This document shows, piece after piece, positions 40,358 through 64,000 of a DNA stretch of 64,000 nucleotides; the first letter of the stretch is position 1; every line of letters begins with the position of its first letter. Source of the DNA: Alphaproteobacteria bacterium (GTDB taxonomy: Bacteria > Pseudomonadota > Alphaproteobacteria > Rs-D84 > CACZYB01); assembly GCA_016297965.1 (NCBI GenBank), contig JAEDDP010000003.1, positions 15,789-79,788 on the forward strand, in the 5' to 3' direction. The position numbers were made by a program, and so were the translations under genes. The notes under the pieces are model-generated. The model made no database searches. It saw only the letters and a program-made list of their open reading frames with translations, and had not been told where the DNA came from.

Positions 40358-41560
40358 ATGAATAAAAAAAGAGTTGCCGTATTTTTTGGTGGAAAGTCAT
40401 TTGAACATGATGTAAGCATTTTGACCGGACTTCAAGTAATGCAGGTTTTGGATATAACAAAGTATGAACCAATACCTGTGTATGTTGATGTTGACGGGAA
40501 ATGGTGGACCGGAAAAGCTTTGCTTGATATGAAAAACTATCCAATAGATGAAAATATCAGGGCAACTCTTCATCATATTGCAATAAGTGTTGGTCGTGGT
40601 GATTTGACACCAAGGTTTGAAATATTAAATCCAAAAATGTTTGGAAAAAAGTTTATTGAATTTGATATTGCATTTTTTGCTTTTCACGGAAGTATGGGTG
40701 AAAACGGACCAATGCAGGGAGTTATGGAGGCATCAAATATTCCATACACCGGTGCCGATGTTTTGTCGTCCGCAATTTATATGAGTAAGACAGACACAAA
40801 GGCAATTTGCCGAAGCATTGGAATAAAGGTTCTTGATGAAATAGTGTTGAAAAAACCGAACATTAACGAATCTTTTGATGTAAAATCCCTTACAAAAGGA
40901 TTGAAAATAAACTTTCCTGTTTGTGTGAAACCGGCAAACCTTGGAAGTTCGGTTGGAGTATCAAAGGCGGTAAATGAGGATGAACTTCAAACATCAATAC
41001 TTCAAGTTTTCAAGCTTGATAATGAAGTGATTATTGAACCTTTTGTTGAAAACCTTAAAGAATACAATGTTGCCGTTATGAAAAATTTGGATGGGGAAAT
41101 AATTACATCCGTAATTGAGTCTCCGGTTGAAAAACACGAATTTTTGGATTTTAAGGACAAATATTTGGCAAGCGATGGTGCAAAAAAGACCGGTCCTGCA
41201 AAGCTTGCCGTTCCAACAGAAGGACTTCTTTCAATGGGACGTGAATATAATCCACAAATAACAGATGAAATGAAACATTTCATTGAAACTTCGGCAAAAA
41301 AGTTATTTGGATATATGGGAGCGACCGGTAATCCAAGAATTGATTTTTTGTGTAATTCAAAAACAAATGAGCTTTGGCTTAATGAAGTAAATCCAATTCC
41401 GGGGGCATTTGCATTTTACCTTTGGGAAAAATCGGAACACAAAATTAACTATGCAAAGCTTGTTGACATAATTATTCAAAATGGATTTAAAAATTTTGAT
41501 GCAAAAAATAAAAACATTGATTTGAAAACTGCATCATCAATAATTTTTAAAAAGAAATAA
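40358..41560 (+). CDS. ddl: D-alanine--D-alanine ligase family (ATP-grasp).
   Basis: VAVFFGGKSFEHDVSILTG N-terminus, ATP-grasp central domain, and a C-terminal NEVNPIPG motif. Confidence 0.7.
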   Translation: MNKKRVAVFFGGKSFEHDVSILTGLQVMQVLDITKYEPIPVYVDVDGKWWTGKALLDMKNYPIDENIRATLHHIAISVGRGDLTPRFEILNPKMFGKKFIEFDIAFFAFHGSMGENGPMQGVMEASNIPYTGADVLSSAIYMSKTDTKAICRSIGIKVLDEIVLKKPNINESFDVKSLTKGLKINFPVCVKPANLGSSVGVSKAVNEDELQTSILQVFKLDNEVIIEPFVENLKEYNVAVMKNLDGEIITSVIESPVEKHEFLDFKDKYLASDGAKKTGPAKLAVPTEGLLSMGREYNPQITDEMKHFIETSAKKLFGYMGATGNPRIDFLCNSKTNELWLNEVNPIPGAFAFYLWEKSEHKINYAKLVDIIIQNGFKNFDAKNKNIDLKTASSIIFKKK

Positions 41561-41564
41561 ATAA

Positions 41565-41590
41565 GGCCCCGTAAATGGGGCTTTTTTTTT
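41565..41590 (+). terminator. Rho-independent terminator after ddl (gcccc-gtaaat-ggggc + T9).
   Basis: GC stem followed by nine T. Also abuts the 3' end of the convergent murF-like gene. Confidence 0.6.
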
Positions 41591-43184
41591 AGATGTTTAT
41601 TTTCGCTTCAAACACATCGGGTAAATCGTTTTCATAAAGGACAACATCATTTGCCCGCATATTAAGATTTAACCATTCCTGCGCCTGTTTCAATGTATCA
41701 ACAAAGATAAGTTCTTGATTGTCCCGTTTACCATTTTTAAATGTATCGGTAAATGATTTTATCCGGTCGGGTACAACGGCAATTACTATATCACAGGTAT
41801 CAAGTGCGATTTCGGCAACTTCCCTGTGTTGTGCATCGTGTTGATTGCCAAGTTCAACCATCCCCGGTGTGATAAGTATTGCACGCCCTTTATTTTCCGC
41901 GGCCAAGGAATGTAATGTTTCAAGTGCCGATTTAAAGCCATCAACATTTGAATTGAAGGCATCATCAATTATGATTGCTCCGTTTAATTGCTTTTTTACC
42001 TCTAATCTGTGTTCGGTTTGTGGCAATGATTTAAGTGTTGCAATAATTGTATCAGGTGAAAGTCCAAGCTTTAATGCCATAATAAAGGCGAGTGATATAT
42101 TTTGTGCCTGATGTTTTCCAAATATAGGTGCTGTTATTTTGTATGTGTTTTTATTGTAATGTAAATTAAAGCTTAATCCATTAACAGATGTTGAAATGTC
42201 GGTTATATCAAAATCGGTACGGTCAGCCCTGTACTTTTTAATATACTTATAATCAACAAGTTTTGAATTTATAACATAAAAACCATTATTTTTTTTAACG
42301 GACTTTATCAAATCAAACTTTTCCTTTGCGATGGCATCCTTTGATTTAAAGTTTTCAAAGTGTGCCGAACCAATTGCCGTAAGGATACCAAATGTTGGTT
42401 CAATAAGGTTGCAAATCTTTCTTATCCGACCGGAACGGGATGTTCCAACCTCAACAATAAAATATTTATATTGTGGTTTAAGTTCTTCACGAATCACTTG
42501 GGTGATACCCATCAATGTATTTATGCTTCGTGCAGTTGTCATTGAAGTTGATACAGATGACAATATGTGATTAAGGATATTTTTTGTGCTGGTTTTTCCA
42601 AATGAACCGGTAATTCCAATTACAACCGGATTTATTTTTTGAAGCTTTGCCCGTGCCTGTGCAATATATCTACGACGAATAAAAAACTCTAATGGCGAAA
42701 GCAACAAATTTGCAATAATAAGTGTAAATGGAAGAAGTTGAATTACAAAAATCAAATATCCCATTATTTCACAAAAACAGTAAATATCCTTTGTATAAAG
42801 TTTATATGTATAATAAAAAAGTGATGAAGACATACAAATATCAATCACAAATGCAATTTGTAAAATTCGTTTTATACGCTTTGTTAAATCAAGCTTTTTT
42901 TTGGCGAAACTTTGTTTTGTTGGATTTGGGGTTATAAGGGCAAAGGTAATAAATGCCAATGAGGTAACGATAACATCCAATGGGTAAATTTTTGTACCGG
43001 TTGCAAATATGGTATATAGGAAAAATATCAATGACAAACGCTTATCAACCAATTGAAACTTATGAAAAATAAAATGAATAAATGATTTTGTTTGATAACG
43101 TTCCTGTTGAAAGAAAAGACTGTAAAACATAGTCCTTTTGTATGCAAAAAACATAAATGAAAGAAATGCACAAATTATATACAT
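41589..43184 (-). CDS. murF: Mur ligase, MurF-like (UDP-MurNAc-tripeptide--D-Ala-D-Ala ligase family), with an unusual ~190-aa N-terminal polytopic membrane region in place of the canonical N-terminal domain.
   Basis: NPVVIGITGSFGKTSTK (P-loop), TEHRLEV, and IIIDDAFNSNVDGFKSAL (the Mur ligase C-terminal DDxYNxN signature). The first ~190 aa contain 4-5 hydrophobic helices and no in-frame stop. Confidence 0.6.
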   Translation of the reverse strand: MYIICAFLSFMFFAYKRTMFYSLFFQQERYQTKSFIHFIFHKFQLVDKRLSLIFFLYTIFATGTKIYPLDVIVTSLAFITFALITPNPTKQSFAKKKLDLTKRIKRILQIAFVIDICMSSSLFYYTYKLYTKDIYCFCEIMGYLIFVIQLLPFTLIIANLLLSPLEFFIRRRYIAQARAKLQKINPVVIGITGSFGKTSTKNILNHILSSVSTSMTTARSINTLMGITQVIREELKPQYKYFIVEVGTSRSGRIRKICNLIEPTFGILTAIGSAHFENFKSKDAIAKEKFDLIKSVKKNNGFYVINSKLVDYKYIKKYRADRTDFDITDISTSVNGLSFNLHYNKNTYKITAPIFGKHQAQNISLAFIMALKLGLSPDTIIATLKSLPQTEHRLEVKKQLNGAIIIDDAFNSNVDGFKSALETLHSLAAENKGRAILITPGMVELGNQHDAQHREVAEIALDTCDIVIAVVPDRIKSFTDTFKNGKRDNQELIFVDTLKQAQEWLNLNMRANDVVLYENDLPDVFEAKINI

Positions 43185-44049: not shown

Positions 44050-44055
44050 ATGTGG

Positions 44056-44146
44056 TTGAGGGTTGACGGACGGTTCGGATATTCCAACTGGTCAGGTTCG
44101 GAAGAAAGCAGCCAAGAATGTTCGGGGCGGGTCGTCAATTCCTCAA
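44056..44146 (+). ncRNA. ffs: Signal recognition particle RNA (4.5S / small SRP RNA).
   Basis: GGUCAGGUUCGGAAGAAAGCAGCCAAG matches the domain IV consensus (E. coli GGUCAGGUCCGGAAGGAAGCAGCCAAG) at 22 of 24 positions. The terminal helix UUGAGGGUUGACG / CGUCAAUUCCUCAA closes the molecule at ~91 nt. It is GC-richer than the surrounding intergenic DNA. Confidence 0.7.
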
Positions 44147-44166
44147 AAAACAAATTCAATCAAAAA

Positions 44167-60685: not shown

Positions 60686-61300
60686 TTATAAACCTAATTT
60701 TTCATTTATGATTTTCATTATACGTGATGAAACTTCATCAATAGTGCCAACCGAATCCATTAAAACACAACGTTCAGGATGAAGTTTGGCAACTTCACGG
60801 AAACCCTGCGCTCCCTTTGATAACCACTCATCCCCCATATTTTCAAAACGGTTCATTTCGGTTAAAATACCGTGGGATTTGTCATGTGCAATATCAAAAA
60901 TAATTGTAAGGTCCGGTTTGAAATCGCCAACGGAAAGTTTATAAAGTTCCTCCATCCGGTCAATGCCAAGTCCGTGTGCGAATCCTTGGTATGCGGAGGT
61001 TGTATCAAAAAATCTGTCGCAAATAACGATTTTGCCACTTTGAACCGCGGGTTTTATAACTTGGTTTACATGGTCATTACGAACAGCGGTAAAAAGAAGT
61101 GCTTCGGTCATTGGCTCCATTTTATCAACATCACCCTTTAAAAGAATAGAGCGAATCTTTTCCCCAAGTGGTGTTCCTCCCGGTTCGCGGGTGGTTATAA
61201 CATCGTGTCCAAGACCGCGTAATTTGTCAGCAATAAGTTTAGTTTGGGTTGTTTTACCAACGCCCTCGCCTCCTTCAAATGTAATGAAAAATCCAGCCAT
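60686..61300 (-). CDS. tmk: Thymidylate kinase.
   Basis: FITFEGGEGVGKTTQ P-loop and a DRF motif region. Confidence 0.85.
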   Translation of the reverse strand: MAGFFITFEGGEGVGKTTQTKLIADKLRGLGHDVITTREPGGTPLGEKIRSILLKGDVDKMEPMTEALLFTAVRNDHVNQVIKPAVQSGKIVICDRFFDTTSAYQGFAHGLGIDRMEELYKLSVGDFKPDLTIIFDIAHDKSHGILTEMNRFENMGDEWLSKGAQGFREVAKLHPERCVLMDSVGTIDEVSSRIMKIINEKLGL

Positions 61301-61310
61301 ACCGATACCT

Positions 61311-62486
61311 CTATTTTACAATGTGCAAAATTATTTGTTGAATGTTTTTGAAAATACGACCAATAAAACCAGTTTTTTTAACATCTTCCAATATGATAAG
61401 TTTATAGTCGCGAATCTTTGTTCCATCAATATAAAGGGTTAATATGCCAACCTCCTCTCCTTTTTTAACAGGTGCGGGGATTGGTTCCTTATATGTCGCA
61501 CGAAGTTCAATGTTCGGTGTTTCACCGTTCTTGCTTGTTATAAGCACCCTATCCGAAATTCCAACGGGAACGGTATCCTTTTTACCAAACCATACTGGGA
61601 TTTCAAAAACTTTGTCTCCTTCGTTATAGTAAACTAAATTTGAAAATTCACGGAATCCCCATTCAAGCAAGGATTTTGAATCGGTAAATCGTGCATAACT
61701 TCCATTTGTTCCCTTTATTCCATTTACAACAGAAATAAGCCGGCGATTGTTTTTTGTGGCGGAGGAGGCAAGACCATATCCCCCCTGCTTTGTATGACCG
61801 GTTTTAAGACCATCGGAATTAGGCATAATCCAAAGGAGTTTATTACGATTATCCTTATTTCCAGTCAAATCCTTTTTATAAAGAAATTCTTTTTCGCTGA
61901 AATAGTGATAATAATCCGGAAAATCCTTTATTATATGACGTGTAAGTATTCCCAAATCTTCGGCGGACATAAGGTGATTTTTATCATACCAACCAGAAGC
62001 ATTTACAAGATGTGTCCTTTTAAGACCAAGACGGGAAGCCAAATCATTTAATTCCCGAACAAAATTTTCCTCACTTCCACTGATATTTTCGGCAAGAACT
62101 ATTGTTGCATCGTTACCGCTGTTTACGATAATACCACGGATAAGGTCTTCTATACGAACCTTTTCCCCCTGTTCAAGGAACATTGTGGAACCGGAATTGG
62201 CATTCATTGCCTTTGCCTTTTTCCATGCCTCAGGTCCAACAACAAACTCTGTATCAAAGGTGTATGTACCATCCTTTATTTTTTCAAATACACGATATAC
62301 AGTCATAAGCTTACTCATAGAAGAAGGAGGAACCATAACCATAGAATTTTTTTCATAAAGTACCTTTCCACTGTCGGCATCCAAAAGTATAGCGTATGGA
62401 GCCTTTAATTCCGGTGTTGGTGCCGAATAGGTTGATTTGTTTGCAAAAAATGAAAGAATAACGGCAGGAATTAGTATTTTTCTCAA
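61311..62486 (-). CDS. dacA: D-alanyl-D-alanine carboxypeptidase (PBP5/6 class, DacA-like).
   Basis: Signal peptide; SMSKLMT (SxxK), SGN and KTG motifs; PBP5 C-terminal domain. Confidence 0.8.
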   Translation of the reverse strand: MRKILIPAVILSFFANKSTYSAPTPELKAPYAILLDADSGKVLYEKNSMVMVPPSSMSKLMTVYRVFEKIKDGTYTFDTEFVVGPEAWKKAKAMNANSGSTMFLEQGEKVRIEDLIRGIIVNSGNDATIVLAENISGSEENFVRELNDLASRLGLKRTHLVNASGWYDKNHLMSAEDLGILTRHIIKDFPDYYHYFSEKEFLYKKDLTGNKDNRNKLLWIMPNSDGLKTGHTKQGGYGLASSATKNNRRLISVVNGIKGTNGSYARFTDSKSLLEWGFREFSNLVYYNEGDKVFEIPVWFGKKDTVPVGISDRVLITSKNGETPNIELRATYKEPIPAPVKKGEEVGILTLYIDGTKIRDYKLIILEDVKKTGFIGRIFKNIQQIILHIVK

Positions 62487-62625
62487 TTTTTTCTCCTATG
62501 ATTTTATTTACAAAGTAATTATTACCTAATTTTTTAAATGATAGCAAGGACAAATTTTAAAATTTAAACTTGCTTATGATTTTTTTTTTGGTAGAATTGC
62601 GACATAGTATATAGAGGCAAAGTTT

Positions 62626-63822
62626 ATGAGCGATACAGAAAAAACATATAAGGTTTTAGCGAGAAAATACAGACCAAGTACATTAGAGGAGCTTGTAGGT
62701 CAGGATGTTTTGGTTAAAACAATTACAAATGCAATAAAAACTAATCGTTTGGCACATGCATATATCTTTACCGGTATCCGTGGTGTTGGAAAGACTTCTA
62801 CCGCACGAATTTTTGCAAAATCGTTAAACTGTATCGGTGCGGATGGAAAGGCAACCGGTCCACAAATAAAACCATGTGGTGTTTGTGAACATTGTCGTGC
62901 AATTGCCGAAGACAGGGACATTGATGTTATTGAAATGGATGCCGCAAGTCGTACTGGTGTTGACGATATACGTGAAATCATTGATGGGGTTCAGTATAAA
63001 CCTTCATCTGCAAGATATAAGGTATATATCATTGACGAAGTTCATATGCTTTCAAAAAGTGCCTTTAATGCCCTTCTTAAAACATTGGAGGAACCACCAG
63101 AATATGCAAAATTTATTTTTGCCACAACCGAAATAAGAAAGGTTCCAGCAACTGTTCTTTCACGCTGTCAACGTTTTGATTTGCCACGTGTTGATATGGA
63201 TGTCCTTTGCAAACATTTCAAGCATATTTGCGAAATGGAAAATGTGAAAATTGATGATGCATCAATACAAATTATCGCCAAAACTGCGGATGGTTCCGTT
63301 CGTGATGGGATGAGTTTTCTGGATCAGGTTATTTCTAATTGTGAGGGAGATATTACTGCGGAAAAGGTTTCAAAAATTTTGGGACTGGCATCAAAGGTTG
63401 TGATTTTTGACCTTTATGAAAGTATTATGGGTGGTAATATTCAACGTGCAATTGATATTATTGATTCACAATATAAACTTGGTGTTGATCCGGTACTTGT
63501 TTTGACCGATTTGTTGGAAATGACCCACTTTATTACAAGGGTTAAAATTACTCCGGCATCGGCTGGACTTCTTCCTCTTATACCGGAAGAACAGGAACGG
63601 GTTAAACAGTTTGCATCAAAGTTAAGTATTGCTGTGCTTGCCCGAATTTGGCAGATGTTGTTGAAGGGATTTGACGAACTTAAAAAAGTGCCAAATGTCC
63701 TTTCGGCGGTGGAAATGATACTTATCCGTCTTTCGTATGTTGGAATGATGCCAGGTCCAATGGAGATGATACAAAAGATTGAAAGTCAAACTTCTACCGA
63801 AGTACAAAAAAAAAATAGCTAG
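62626..63822 (+). CDS. dnaX: DNA polymerase III subunit gamma/tau. The zero-frame product (398 aa) ends just after an A10 tract; an open +1 frame continues to the window end (candidate tau extension).
   Basis: AAA+ motifs (GIRGVGKTSTARIF, DEVHMLS), a Zn module (CGVCEHCRAI), and domain III. Followed by caaaaaaaaaat agc tag. See the finding at 63800..64000. Confidence 0.85.
   Translation: MSDTEKTYKVLARKYRPSTLEELVGQDVLVKTITNAIKTNRLAHAYIFTGIRGVGKTSTARIFAKSLNCIGADGKATGPQIKPCGVCEHCRAIAEDRDIDVIEMDAASRTGVDDIREIIDGVQYKPSSARYKVYIIDEVHMLSKSAFNALLKTLEEPPEYAKFIFATTEIRKVPATVLSRCQRFDLPRVDMDVLCKHFKHICEMENVKIDDASIQIIAKTADGSVRDGMSFLDQVISNCEGDITAEKVSKILGLASKVVIFDLYESIMGGNIQRAIDIIDSQYKLGVDPVLVLTDLLEMTHFITRVKITPASAGLLPLIPEEQERVKQFASKLSIAVLARIWQMLLKGFDELKKVPNVLSAVEMILIRLSYVGMMPGPMEMIQKIESQTSTEVQKKNS
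63806..63815 (+). other. A10 homopolymer slippery tract at the end of the dnaX gamma ORF.
   Basis: Ten consecutive A at 63806-63815; stop TAG at 63820-63822. The +1 frame starting at 63812 stays open for ~63 codons to the window end. Confidence 0.6.
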
Positions 63823-64000
63823 CCATATAAATACTTCCCTTTTGTTTGATGAGGTGGCGGATGCGACCGAAGGTGATGTTGCCACAATCACGATTGAGGG
63901 ATTGGTTTCAACCCTTAAAACAAAAAAATCCTTCCTTTTATCCCAAGATGTTGAACGGTTTGTTCGTTTTGTGTCATTTGATAAGGGGCTTCTTCTTATA

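Follow-up and report, generated by a model that had tools for sequence, protein, structure and literature searches.

In Thermus thermophilus, transcriptional slippage at a run of nine A residues (A9) in dnaX (Larsen et al. 2000; Yurieva et al. 1997) is a demonstrated source of the short DnaX form, gamma, and A or T runs of at least nine are in general sites of efficient slippage by bacterial RNA polymerase. Antonov et al. (2013, NAR 41:6514) reported a second arrangement, in which dnaX is divided over two open reading frames (ORFs) and the long form, tau, can only be made through recoding. Their set comprises 17 genes from 12 genera, nine with A10, all -1, with examples from Chlorobium, Pelodictyon, Prosthecochloris, Flavobacterium, Cytophaga, Capnocytophaga and Coraliomargarita; the examples they align come from Chlorobi, Bacteroidetes and Verrucomicrobia, and no alphaproteobacterium is among the nine A10 genes of their Figure S3. 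In Caulobacter crescentus, gamma arises from partial proteolysis of tau by ClpXP, and in Blochmannia vafer and Blochmannia floridanus dnaX carries a poly(A) frameshift inside the tau-only region. Here we describe a two-ORF dnaX from a gut alphaproteobacterium, situated at the end of a 64,000-nucleotide stretch of contig JAEDDP010000003.1 (assembly GCA_016297965.1), which we call the window. Our literature search found no paper describing a two-ORF dnaX in Alphaproteobacteria, and none mentioning DUF3646, the domain encoded by the second of the two frames.

We propose, with a probability of about 0.7, that this dnaX is a recoded two-frame gene, in which tau would be made only when a run of ten A residues at the junction is read as A9 or A12, most likely as a consequence of slippage by RNA polymerase.

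The split dnaX gene and its downstream frame

The junction has the form C-A10-T (63805-63816), with C63805 before the run and T63816 after it, and is surrounded by the following features (window coordinates; nt, nucleotides; aa, amino acids).

62626..63822, + strand: dnaX zero-frame ORF from the ORF list, gamma-like, 398 aa, with AAA+ module, lid and domain III, ending EVQKKNS*
63790..63803, + strand: small hairpin (ACTTC-tacc-GAAGT) that stops 2 nt short of the run; a weak candidate for a nascent-RNA stimulator of slippage
63806..63815, + strand: A10, the putative slip site, where the gamma and tau frames diverge; also A10 in assemblies L001-L010
63815..64000 and on beyond the window end, + strand: start of the tau-specific ORF in the +1 frame, first codon ATA (63815-63817), with a short linker and a DUF3646 / tau-domain-V-like domain
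63816..63818, + strand: TAG, stop of the -1 frame
63820..63822, + strand: TAG, stop of the zero frame and terminator of gamma, two codons past the run

In the zero frame the junction reads GAA GTA CAA AAA AAA AAT AGC TAG, and the 398-aa product matches Pfam PF13177, PF22608 and PF12169, which represent DnaX domains I-III. The initial annotation of this DNA had the layout right: the zero-frame product ends directly after the run at 63806-63815, the -1 frame halts at once (AAA TAG), and the +1 frame stays free of stops from the run to base 64000, a distance of 62-63 codons (P ~ 0.009 in random sequence of equal composition). It erred in calling the downstream codon usage GC3-rich, since the GC content of third codon positions (GC3) is 0.34 downstream of the run vs 0.28 in the upstream part of dnaX, and both parts are AT3-rich. 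Three A or T runs of at least nine occur in the 64 kb of the window, and the dnaX run is the only one of them in coding sequence; the other two are the U-tract of a terminator (41582-41590) and an intergenic T10 (62580-62589).

Even as cut by the window end, the +1 ORF matches PF12362, 'DNA polymerase III gamma and tau subunits C terminal'. The initial annotation had allowed for stops just beyond the window; the stop of this frame falls 234 nt past the window end, and in assembly L001 the ORF (L001:7190-7609) starts with the run's last A and comprises 139 codons, its stop lying 37 nt ahead of ybaB. The downstream ORF matches the whole PF12362 model (57.7 bits, cutoff 30.2), its domain being DUF3646, and its predicted fold is closest to domain V of E. 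coli tau. Hence the tau homology that had been suspected for this frame is borne out; among the Pfam models, PF12362 was the only one to match the ORF, those for tau domains IV and V giving no match. The conceptual fusion of the two frames (one A deleted; 535 aa) passes the NCBIfam equivalog NF006585 for alphaproteobacterial DnaX with 694 bits vs 604. Among relatives the downstream ORF is intact at 134-141 codons, and between them the ratio of nonsynonymous to synonymous divergence (dN/dS) is 0.10-0.25, with synonymous divergence (dS) of 0.4-1.9. Such constraint at this divergence, together with the full PF12362 match, argues that the ORF is expressed as protein; to judge from its sequence, it is a translated tau-specific domain under purifying selection, and the domain, DUF3646 or tau-domain-V-like, presumably binds polymerase.

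The out-of-frame run is real. The exact 398-aa protein is present in 99 index blocks of the public collection, and the 21 contigs that were read encode the identical protein. Ten independent assemblies (L001-L010, from ENA and Logan sources and with SPAdes and MEGAHIT names), which differ from each other over roughly 0.6-2% of 8.1 kb (L002 more divergent), all have A10, followed in order by a DUF3646 gene call of 126-130 aa and by ybaB. A look-up by the exact 398-aa protein favours A10, hence the additional search with the conceptual fusion: its matches from 100% to 62% identity are all of 394-400 aa and lack PF12362, full-length proteins start at no more than 58% identity, and no in-frame protein above 58% identity was found in the protein collection. 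Among the listed members of the 90% cluster of the window species, about 110 contigs encode the 398-aa protein and about 4 a 397-aa one (...QKKK*), and no A9 or A12 assembly was seen among the ~115 contigs of the species. The A11 minority is represented by L106-L108 (junction at about 2676-2694 in L106), in which tau lies in the -1 frame and is likewise out of frame; one of these assemblies has 1.6x coverage, and the A11 contigs may reflect strain variation in run length or homopolymer error. Because the out-of-frame arrangement is found in more than 100 independent contigs, and no in-frame version in the protein collection, we reject homopolymer error as its source. Between the two possibilities left by the initial annotation, a split expressed through slippage or a 1-nt error, the comparative data thus speak for the former, while the latter fails against more than 100 contigs and the ~40 protein clusters that conserve the arrangement.

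The A run in relatives

To assess conservation of the junction we compared the DNA of relatives at 90, 83, 81, 80, 74, 69, 66 and 62% identity and of four metagenome loci; 12 split loci and L109 make up 13 distinct split loci. In all 13, a run of A9-A11 lies at the homologous codon and the downstream ORF is out of frame, as follows.

A10, tau in the +1 frame: L001, L091, L102, L103, L093, L094, L095, L097, L104, L098
A11, tau in the -1 frame: L096, L109 and L106-L108 (the last three from the window species)
A9, tau in the -1 frame: L105

The frame of the tau ORF follows the length of the run, +1 with A10 and -1 with A11 or A9. In every split locus tau is restored by a reading equivalent to A9 or A12 and the other two frames stop within 0-6 codons, the zero-frame stop of the relatives lying 1-6 codons past the run. 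The same pattern appears at the protein level, where ~40 clusters, ranging in identity from 100% down to 62%, terminate at one site, with (Q/E/A)KKN.. or QKKK tails; the comparison with orthologous dnaX genes, which had been suggested at the outset, therefore favours a split kept down to 62% identity. Because the downstream ORF is out of frame across the clade, slippage at the run would be needed for tau.

The run is also kept in relatives of 58-60% GC, whose dnaX genes have a GC3 of 0.80-0.87 and use AAG for 57-76% of the Lys codons outside the run. Since the run persists in GC-rich genomes that prefer AAG, its nucleotides appear to be under selection beyond the Lys-Lys-Lys motif that they encode, and we regard the run, on this comparative evidence, as a selected recoding site and not as tolerated decay.

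In the nearest full-length relatives the run is present and in frame: L100 has C-A11-TTAGCT (QKKKLAL; run at L100:3675-3685) and L101 has GC-A10-TTAGCG (AKKKLAL; run at L101:3670-3679). A third gene, the single-ORF dnaX of L017, has an in-frame A9 (L017:4139-4147). In all three, stops follow soon after the run in both other frames, and by analogy they are candidate alphaproteobacterial cases of gamma made by slippage in the manner of Thermus. As a control we used 80 other alphaproteobacterial dnaX loci, outgroups at no more than 60% identity among the matches listed (contig scan with DnaX alignment), and only one of the 80, L017 itself, has a run of at least nine at this site (A9, in frame). 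In a rough neighbour-joining tree the run-bearing genes form one group, with split and in-frame genes interleaved at its base and A11 nested within A10. This grouping suggests that the run is ancestral in the clade and that the templated frame has probably flipped several times.

Routes to the tau frame

If our reading is right, RNA polymerase would slip where its RNA:DNA hybrid consists of 10 A:T pairs and give rise to a mixed mRNA population. Faithful reading of A10 would yield the 398-aa gamma-like clamp-loader subunit (domains I-III), and A13 would also yield gamma, whereas A9 and A12 would yield a tau-like subunit of about 535 aa and 536 aa, respectively, with the DUF3646 / tau-domain-V-like domain at its C-terminus. 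The A11 mRNA, with one added A, would encode a gamma variant of 397 aa ending ...EVQKKK*, the same product that the rare A11 assemblies of the window species encode. That the long form requires a +1/-2 shift, as was first supposed, agrees with A10 and tau in the +1 frame, and with the 535-aa tau obtained on deleting one A. We favour transcriptional slippage because both shift directions occur in one orthologous group, the run is long (10-11) and no 3' stimulator was found; the first of these is the criterion by which Antonov et al. (2013) recognise transcriptional realignment.

Slippage might be assisted by a nascent-RNA hairpin that closely precedes the run. In the Roseiflexus IS630 element, a stem-loop stimulates transcriptional slippage, its stem consisting of 6 G:C-rich pairs and being indispensable next to the weak motif U5C5 (Penno et al. 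2015). In the window the hairpin is the minimum free energy structure of the 46 nt upstream of the run (-3.9 kcal/mol, z -1.7), and in most loci it ends 1-4 nt 5' of the run and has 4-7 pairs, often A:U-rich. Pairing is kept in 88% of the cells of 11 aligned loci, vs 26-52% with a slid partner, and 3 of the 6 pairs change on both sides, e.g. from U:A to C:G at two synonymous positions.

Several points weigh against slippage by the polymerase or against the aid of the hairpin. The mechanism is deduced from comparison of sequences. On A runs, insertions by bacterial RNA polymerase are reported to outnumber deletions; given this bias, the commonest slip on A10 (+1 A) would yield gamma again, while tau needs +2 or -1, and a mix poor in tau is predicted for slippage on A10. 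In E. coli, tau is essential. The stems are short (-4 to -9 kcal/mol, z-scores -2.65 to +0.84), the hairpin is absent in L105 and displaced in L098, and RNAalifold on positions -30..+70 calls no hairpin. Its covariation is confounded by codon and GC3 bias, the stem lying within the conserved codons T-S-x-E-V, and we therefore treat a role of the hairpin in slippage as a weak lead only. Finally, ribosomes can also shift on AAA-AAA runs in either direction, with identical protein products.

This last point leads to the best of the other explanations, in which the Lys-tRNA would re-pair on the homopolymer and tau would come from faithful A10 mRNA through ribosomes that shift frame or slide on the run, by +1 or -2 at CAA AAA AAA AAU in the A10 genomes and -1 in the A11 and A9 genomes. 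The run permits perfect re-pairing in any frame, homopolymers are efficient ribosomal shift sites, and the A11 genomes have a zero-frame stop directly behind the run (AAA TAG), which is a classic stimulator of shifting; moreover, a review by Atkins et al. counts some two-ORF dnaX genes as candidate ribosomal cases. Programmed ribosomal sites, however, are usually specific in direction, and here the direction needed differs among close orthologues (+1 vs -1). The zero-frame codon that follows in the A10 genomes, AAU, is an ordinary one and would offer no stall. RNAalifold finds no consensus 3' stem-loop in 10 loci (-30..+70), and in the window no Shine-Dalgarno-like motif lies in the 25 nt that precede the run. 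With its 10-11 A, the tract also exceeds what a ribosomal site needs and fits the length at which RNA polymerase slips efficiently. We thus consider the ribosomal route improbable, though not to be dismissed lightly. Phase variation by replication slippage is unlikely as well, dnaX being an essential replication gene and the assemblies being about 96% A10, with none in frame.

It is very improbable that the gene is truly split, with a 398-aa DnaX and a separately initiated DUF3646 protein of ~125-150 aa associating non-covalently, and with the run as a mere scar of the split. Gene callers and NCBI do annotate two genes, and in some loci a TTG, GTG or ATG lies between the run and the domain. 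Across the 13 loci, however, no conserved ATG, GTG or TTG and no conserved Shine-Dalgarno motif serves the downstream ORF: the candidate starts between the upstream tau-frame stop and the domain are scattered, at positions that vary by locus, and a Shine-Dalgarno-like motif precedes them in 2 of the 13. L098 and L104 have no canonical start codon before the domain, and in L095 and L102 such a codon occurs only ahead of the run. Elsewhere in the genome such motifs are recognisable, with GAGG before dnaX and AGGAG before ybaB. Independent translation of the downstream ORF thus seems unlikely. Nor would a scar hold 10-11 pure A through saturating synonymous divergence and in GC-rich genomes, or persist in frame in sister lineages. 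In NCBI records of relatives (P0181, P0187, P0198; P0135, P0137) the upstream ORF bears the name of a complete 'DNA polymerase III subunit gamma/tau' and the downstream ORF that of a 'hypothetical protein'; the lengths called for the latter range from 94 to 170 aa (126, 130 or 151 in the window species), as set by an arbitrary start codon. The public records that we looked at carry no recoding annotation of this dnaX.

Least credible of all is that a tau gene with a normal, continuous frame was misread at the homopolymer in sequencing or assembly, or that the downstream frame is what a decaying pseudogene has kept of the tau C-terminus. A10 tracts are error-prone, and about 4 of the ~115 species contigs have A11 (one at 1.6x coverage). 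Yet A10 is shared by more than 100 contigs, which stem from independent samples and assemblers, with 0 A9 and 0 A12, the arrangement recurs in many species, and the downstream ORF has the intact length, low dN/dS and full Pfam match given above.

Returning to slippage by RNA polymerase, a stronger form of this proposal may be raised, albeit tentatively and as one that we hold to be rather doubtful: the tau of the whole clade might come from slipped transcripts alone, which in most members would mean a slip of -1 nt or +2 nt, with slippage that would have to be very efficient (tens of percent), perhaps tuned by the hairpin, and with a default frame that has flipped repeatedly between tau-templated and gamma-templated through single-base changes of the run. 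Were this true, the clade would serve as a natural titration of the tau:gamma ratio, showing how it is set and how it is tolerated.

Genomic setting and comparison with known systems

A promoter-like sequence, TTGCTT-atgaT10gg-TAGAAT (window 62570-62597), lies 29 nt before the dnaX ATG, with the intergenic T10 (62580-62589) in its 16-nt spacer. Relatives with as much as 60% GC conserve its hexamers (cTTGC[T/A] ... TA[G/A]AAT), and the spacer tract is T10 in 12 of 12 strains of the species, T9 in L091, T10 in L102 and A10 in L093, and absent in L094. A consensus promoter scan omits TTGCTT-N16-TAGAAT upstream of dnaX, the -35 hexamer matching at 3 of 6 positions. Downstream, dnaX is followed by ybaB, and upstream lies a conserved neighbourhood on the opposite strand (window 60686-62486, -; upstream in L001:1-5861), which also includes a TatD DNase and a delta'-like PF13177 protein that, at 428 aa, is long for HolB. 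The terminator U-tract mentioned above belongs to the intrinsic terminator GGCCCCgtaaatGGGGC-T9 (window 41564-41590), between the convergent ORFs 40358..41560 (+) and 41589..43184 (-). An Rfam scan of the window returned no family at the gathering threshold beyond the one listed here.

61311..62486, - strand: PBP5-type D-Ala-D-Ala carboxypeptidase
60686..61300, - strand: thymidylate kinase
44055-44149, + strand: bacterial small signal recognition particle (SRP) RNA, RF00169, 48.9 bits

The results bear first on annotation. The real gene would be one recoded unit of about 535 codons, and flags for a pseudogene or an assembly error would be wrong; the records affected are those of uncultured gut and environmental Alphaproteobacteria. 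The results also extend the two-ORF dnaX with tau made by slippage from Chlorobi, Bacteroidetes and Verrucomicrobia to Alphaproteobacteria, where proteolysis has been the only characterised route to gamma, and they support a general need for two DnaX forms that can be supplied by interchangeable means. The presence of the in-frame and both out-of-frame states around one ancestral run also offers a comparative system for the efficiency and direction of slippage and for the tau:gamma ratio that is tolerated. No new principle is revealed.

Among known systems, the Roseiflexus IS630 element has a nascent-RNA stem-loop directly 5' of the slip motif, a position at which the window has a weak candidate hairpin; here the predicted stem has 4-7 pairs, often A:U-rich, and the run alone is long enough to slip. 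Caulobacter shares with the window an alphaproteobacterial DnaX, the same C-terminal family (PF12362) and the requirement for both a short and a long form; its short form, however, is made post-translationally from a single ORF, whereas the short form of the window is templated and would need no protease. In the endosymbionts Buchnera and Blochmannia, as here, a poly(A) frameshift interrupts an otherwise intact essential gene, and slippage is invoked for the full-length product. There, many genes are hit, in reduced AT-rich genomes under relaxed selection; here, the sole coding A or T run of at least nine in 64 kb lies exactly at the gamma/tau boundary and is equally conserved in relatives of 58-60% GC, and the analogy with AT-rich endosymbionts drawn in the initial annotation is therefore not the best one.

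The -1 programmed ribosomal frameshift of E. coli dnaX concerns the same gene, the same pair of products, the same domain boundary and likewise a Lys-Lys site. The window, however, lacks a heptamer ending in AAG (A AAA AAG), a Shine-Dalgarno-like element 5' of the run and a conserved stem-loop 3' of it, and it is the long product, not the short one, that requires the shift. Closer is Thermus, which also has an A run of at least nine at the boundary between domain III and the C-terminal part, with nearby stops in both non-tau frames (0 and 2 codons past the run in the window), and which makes two products from one gene, by way of a mixed mRNA that has been shown in Thermus and is proposed by analogy for the window. 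The roles are reversed, in that tau is templated in Thermus and gamma comes from slipped mRNAs; the Thermus arrangement proper is seen in the in-frame relatives L100, L101 and L017.

The closest match is the type described by Antonov et al. (2013). In both, an ORF for domains I-III stops right after the poly-A (in the window two codons past A10), the tau-specific C-terminus is encoded by a second ORF in another frame, and the conceptual fusion gives a full-length DnaX. In both, the poly-A at the junction is conserved among orthologues, with 7-10 A in their examples and A9-A11 in our 13 split loci, slippage is deduced from this conservation, and the recoding is unannotated in public records. 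The shift that their genes require is -1 at the DNA level, whereas the window and nine other species require +1 (or -2), and -1 occurs here only in the A11 and A9 relatives (L096, L109, L105). Distinct from the genes they describe, too, are the coexistence of A10, A11 and A9 states in one clade and a tau-specific domain that is DUF3646. Thus the organisation is one already described in other phyla, and the locus represents its alphaproteobacterial instance, with the opposite main direction of shift and several apparent flips of frame.

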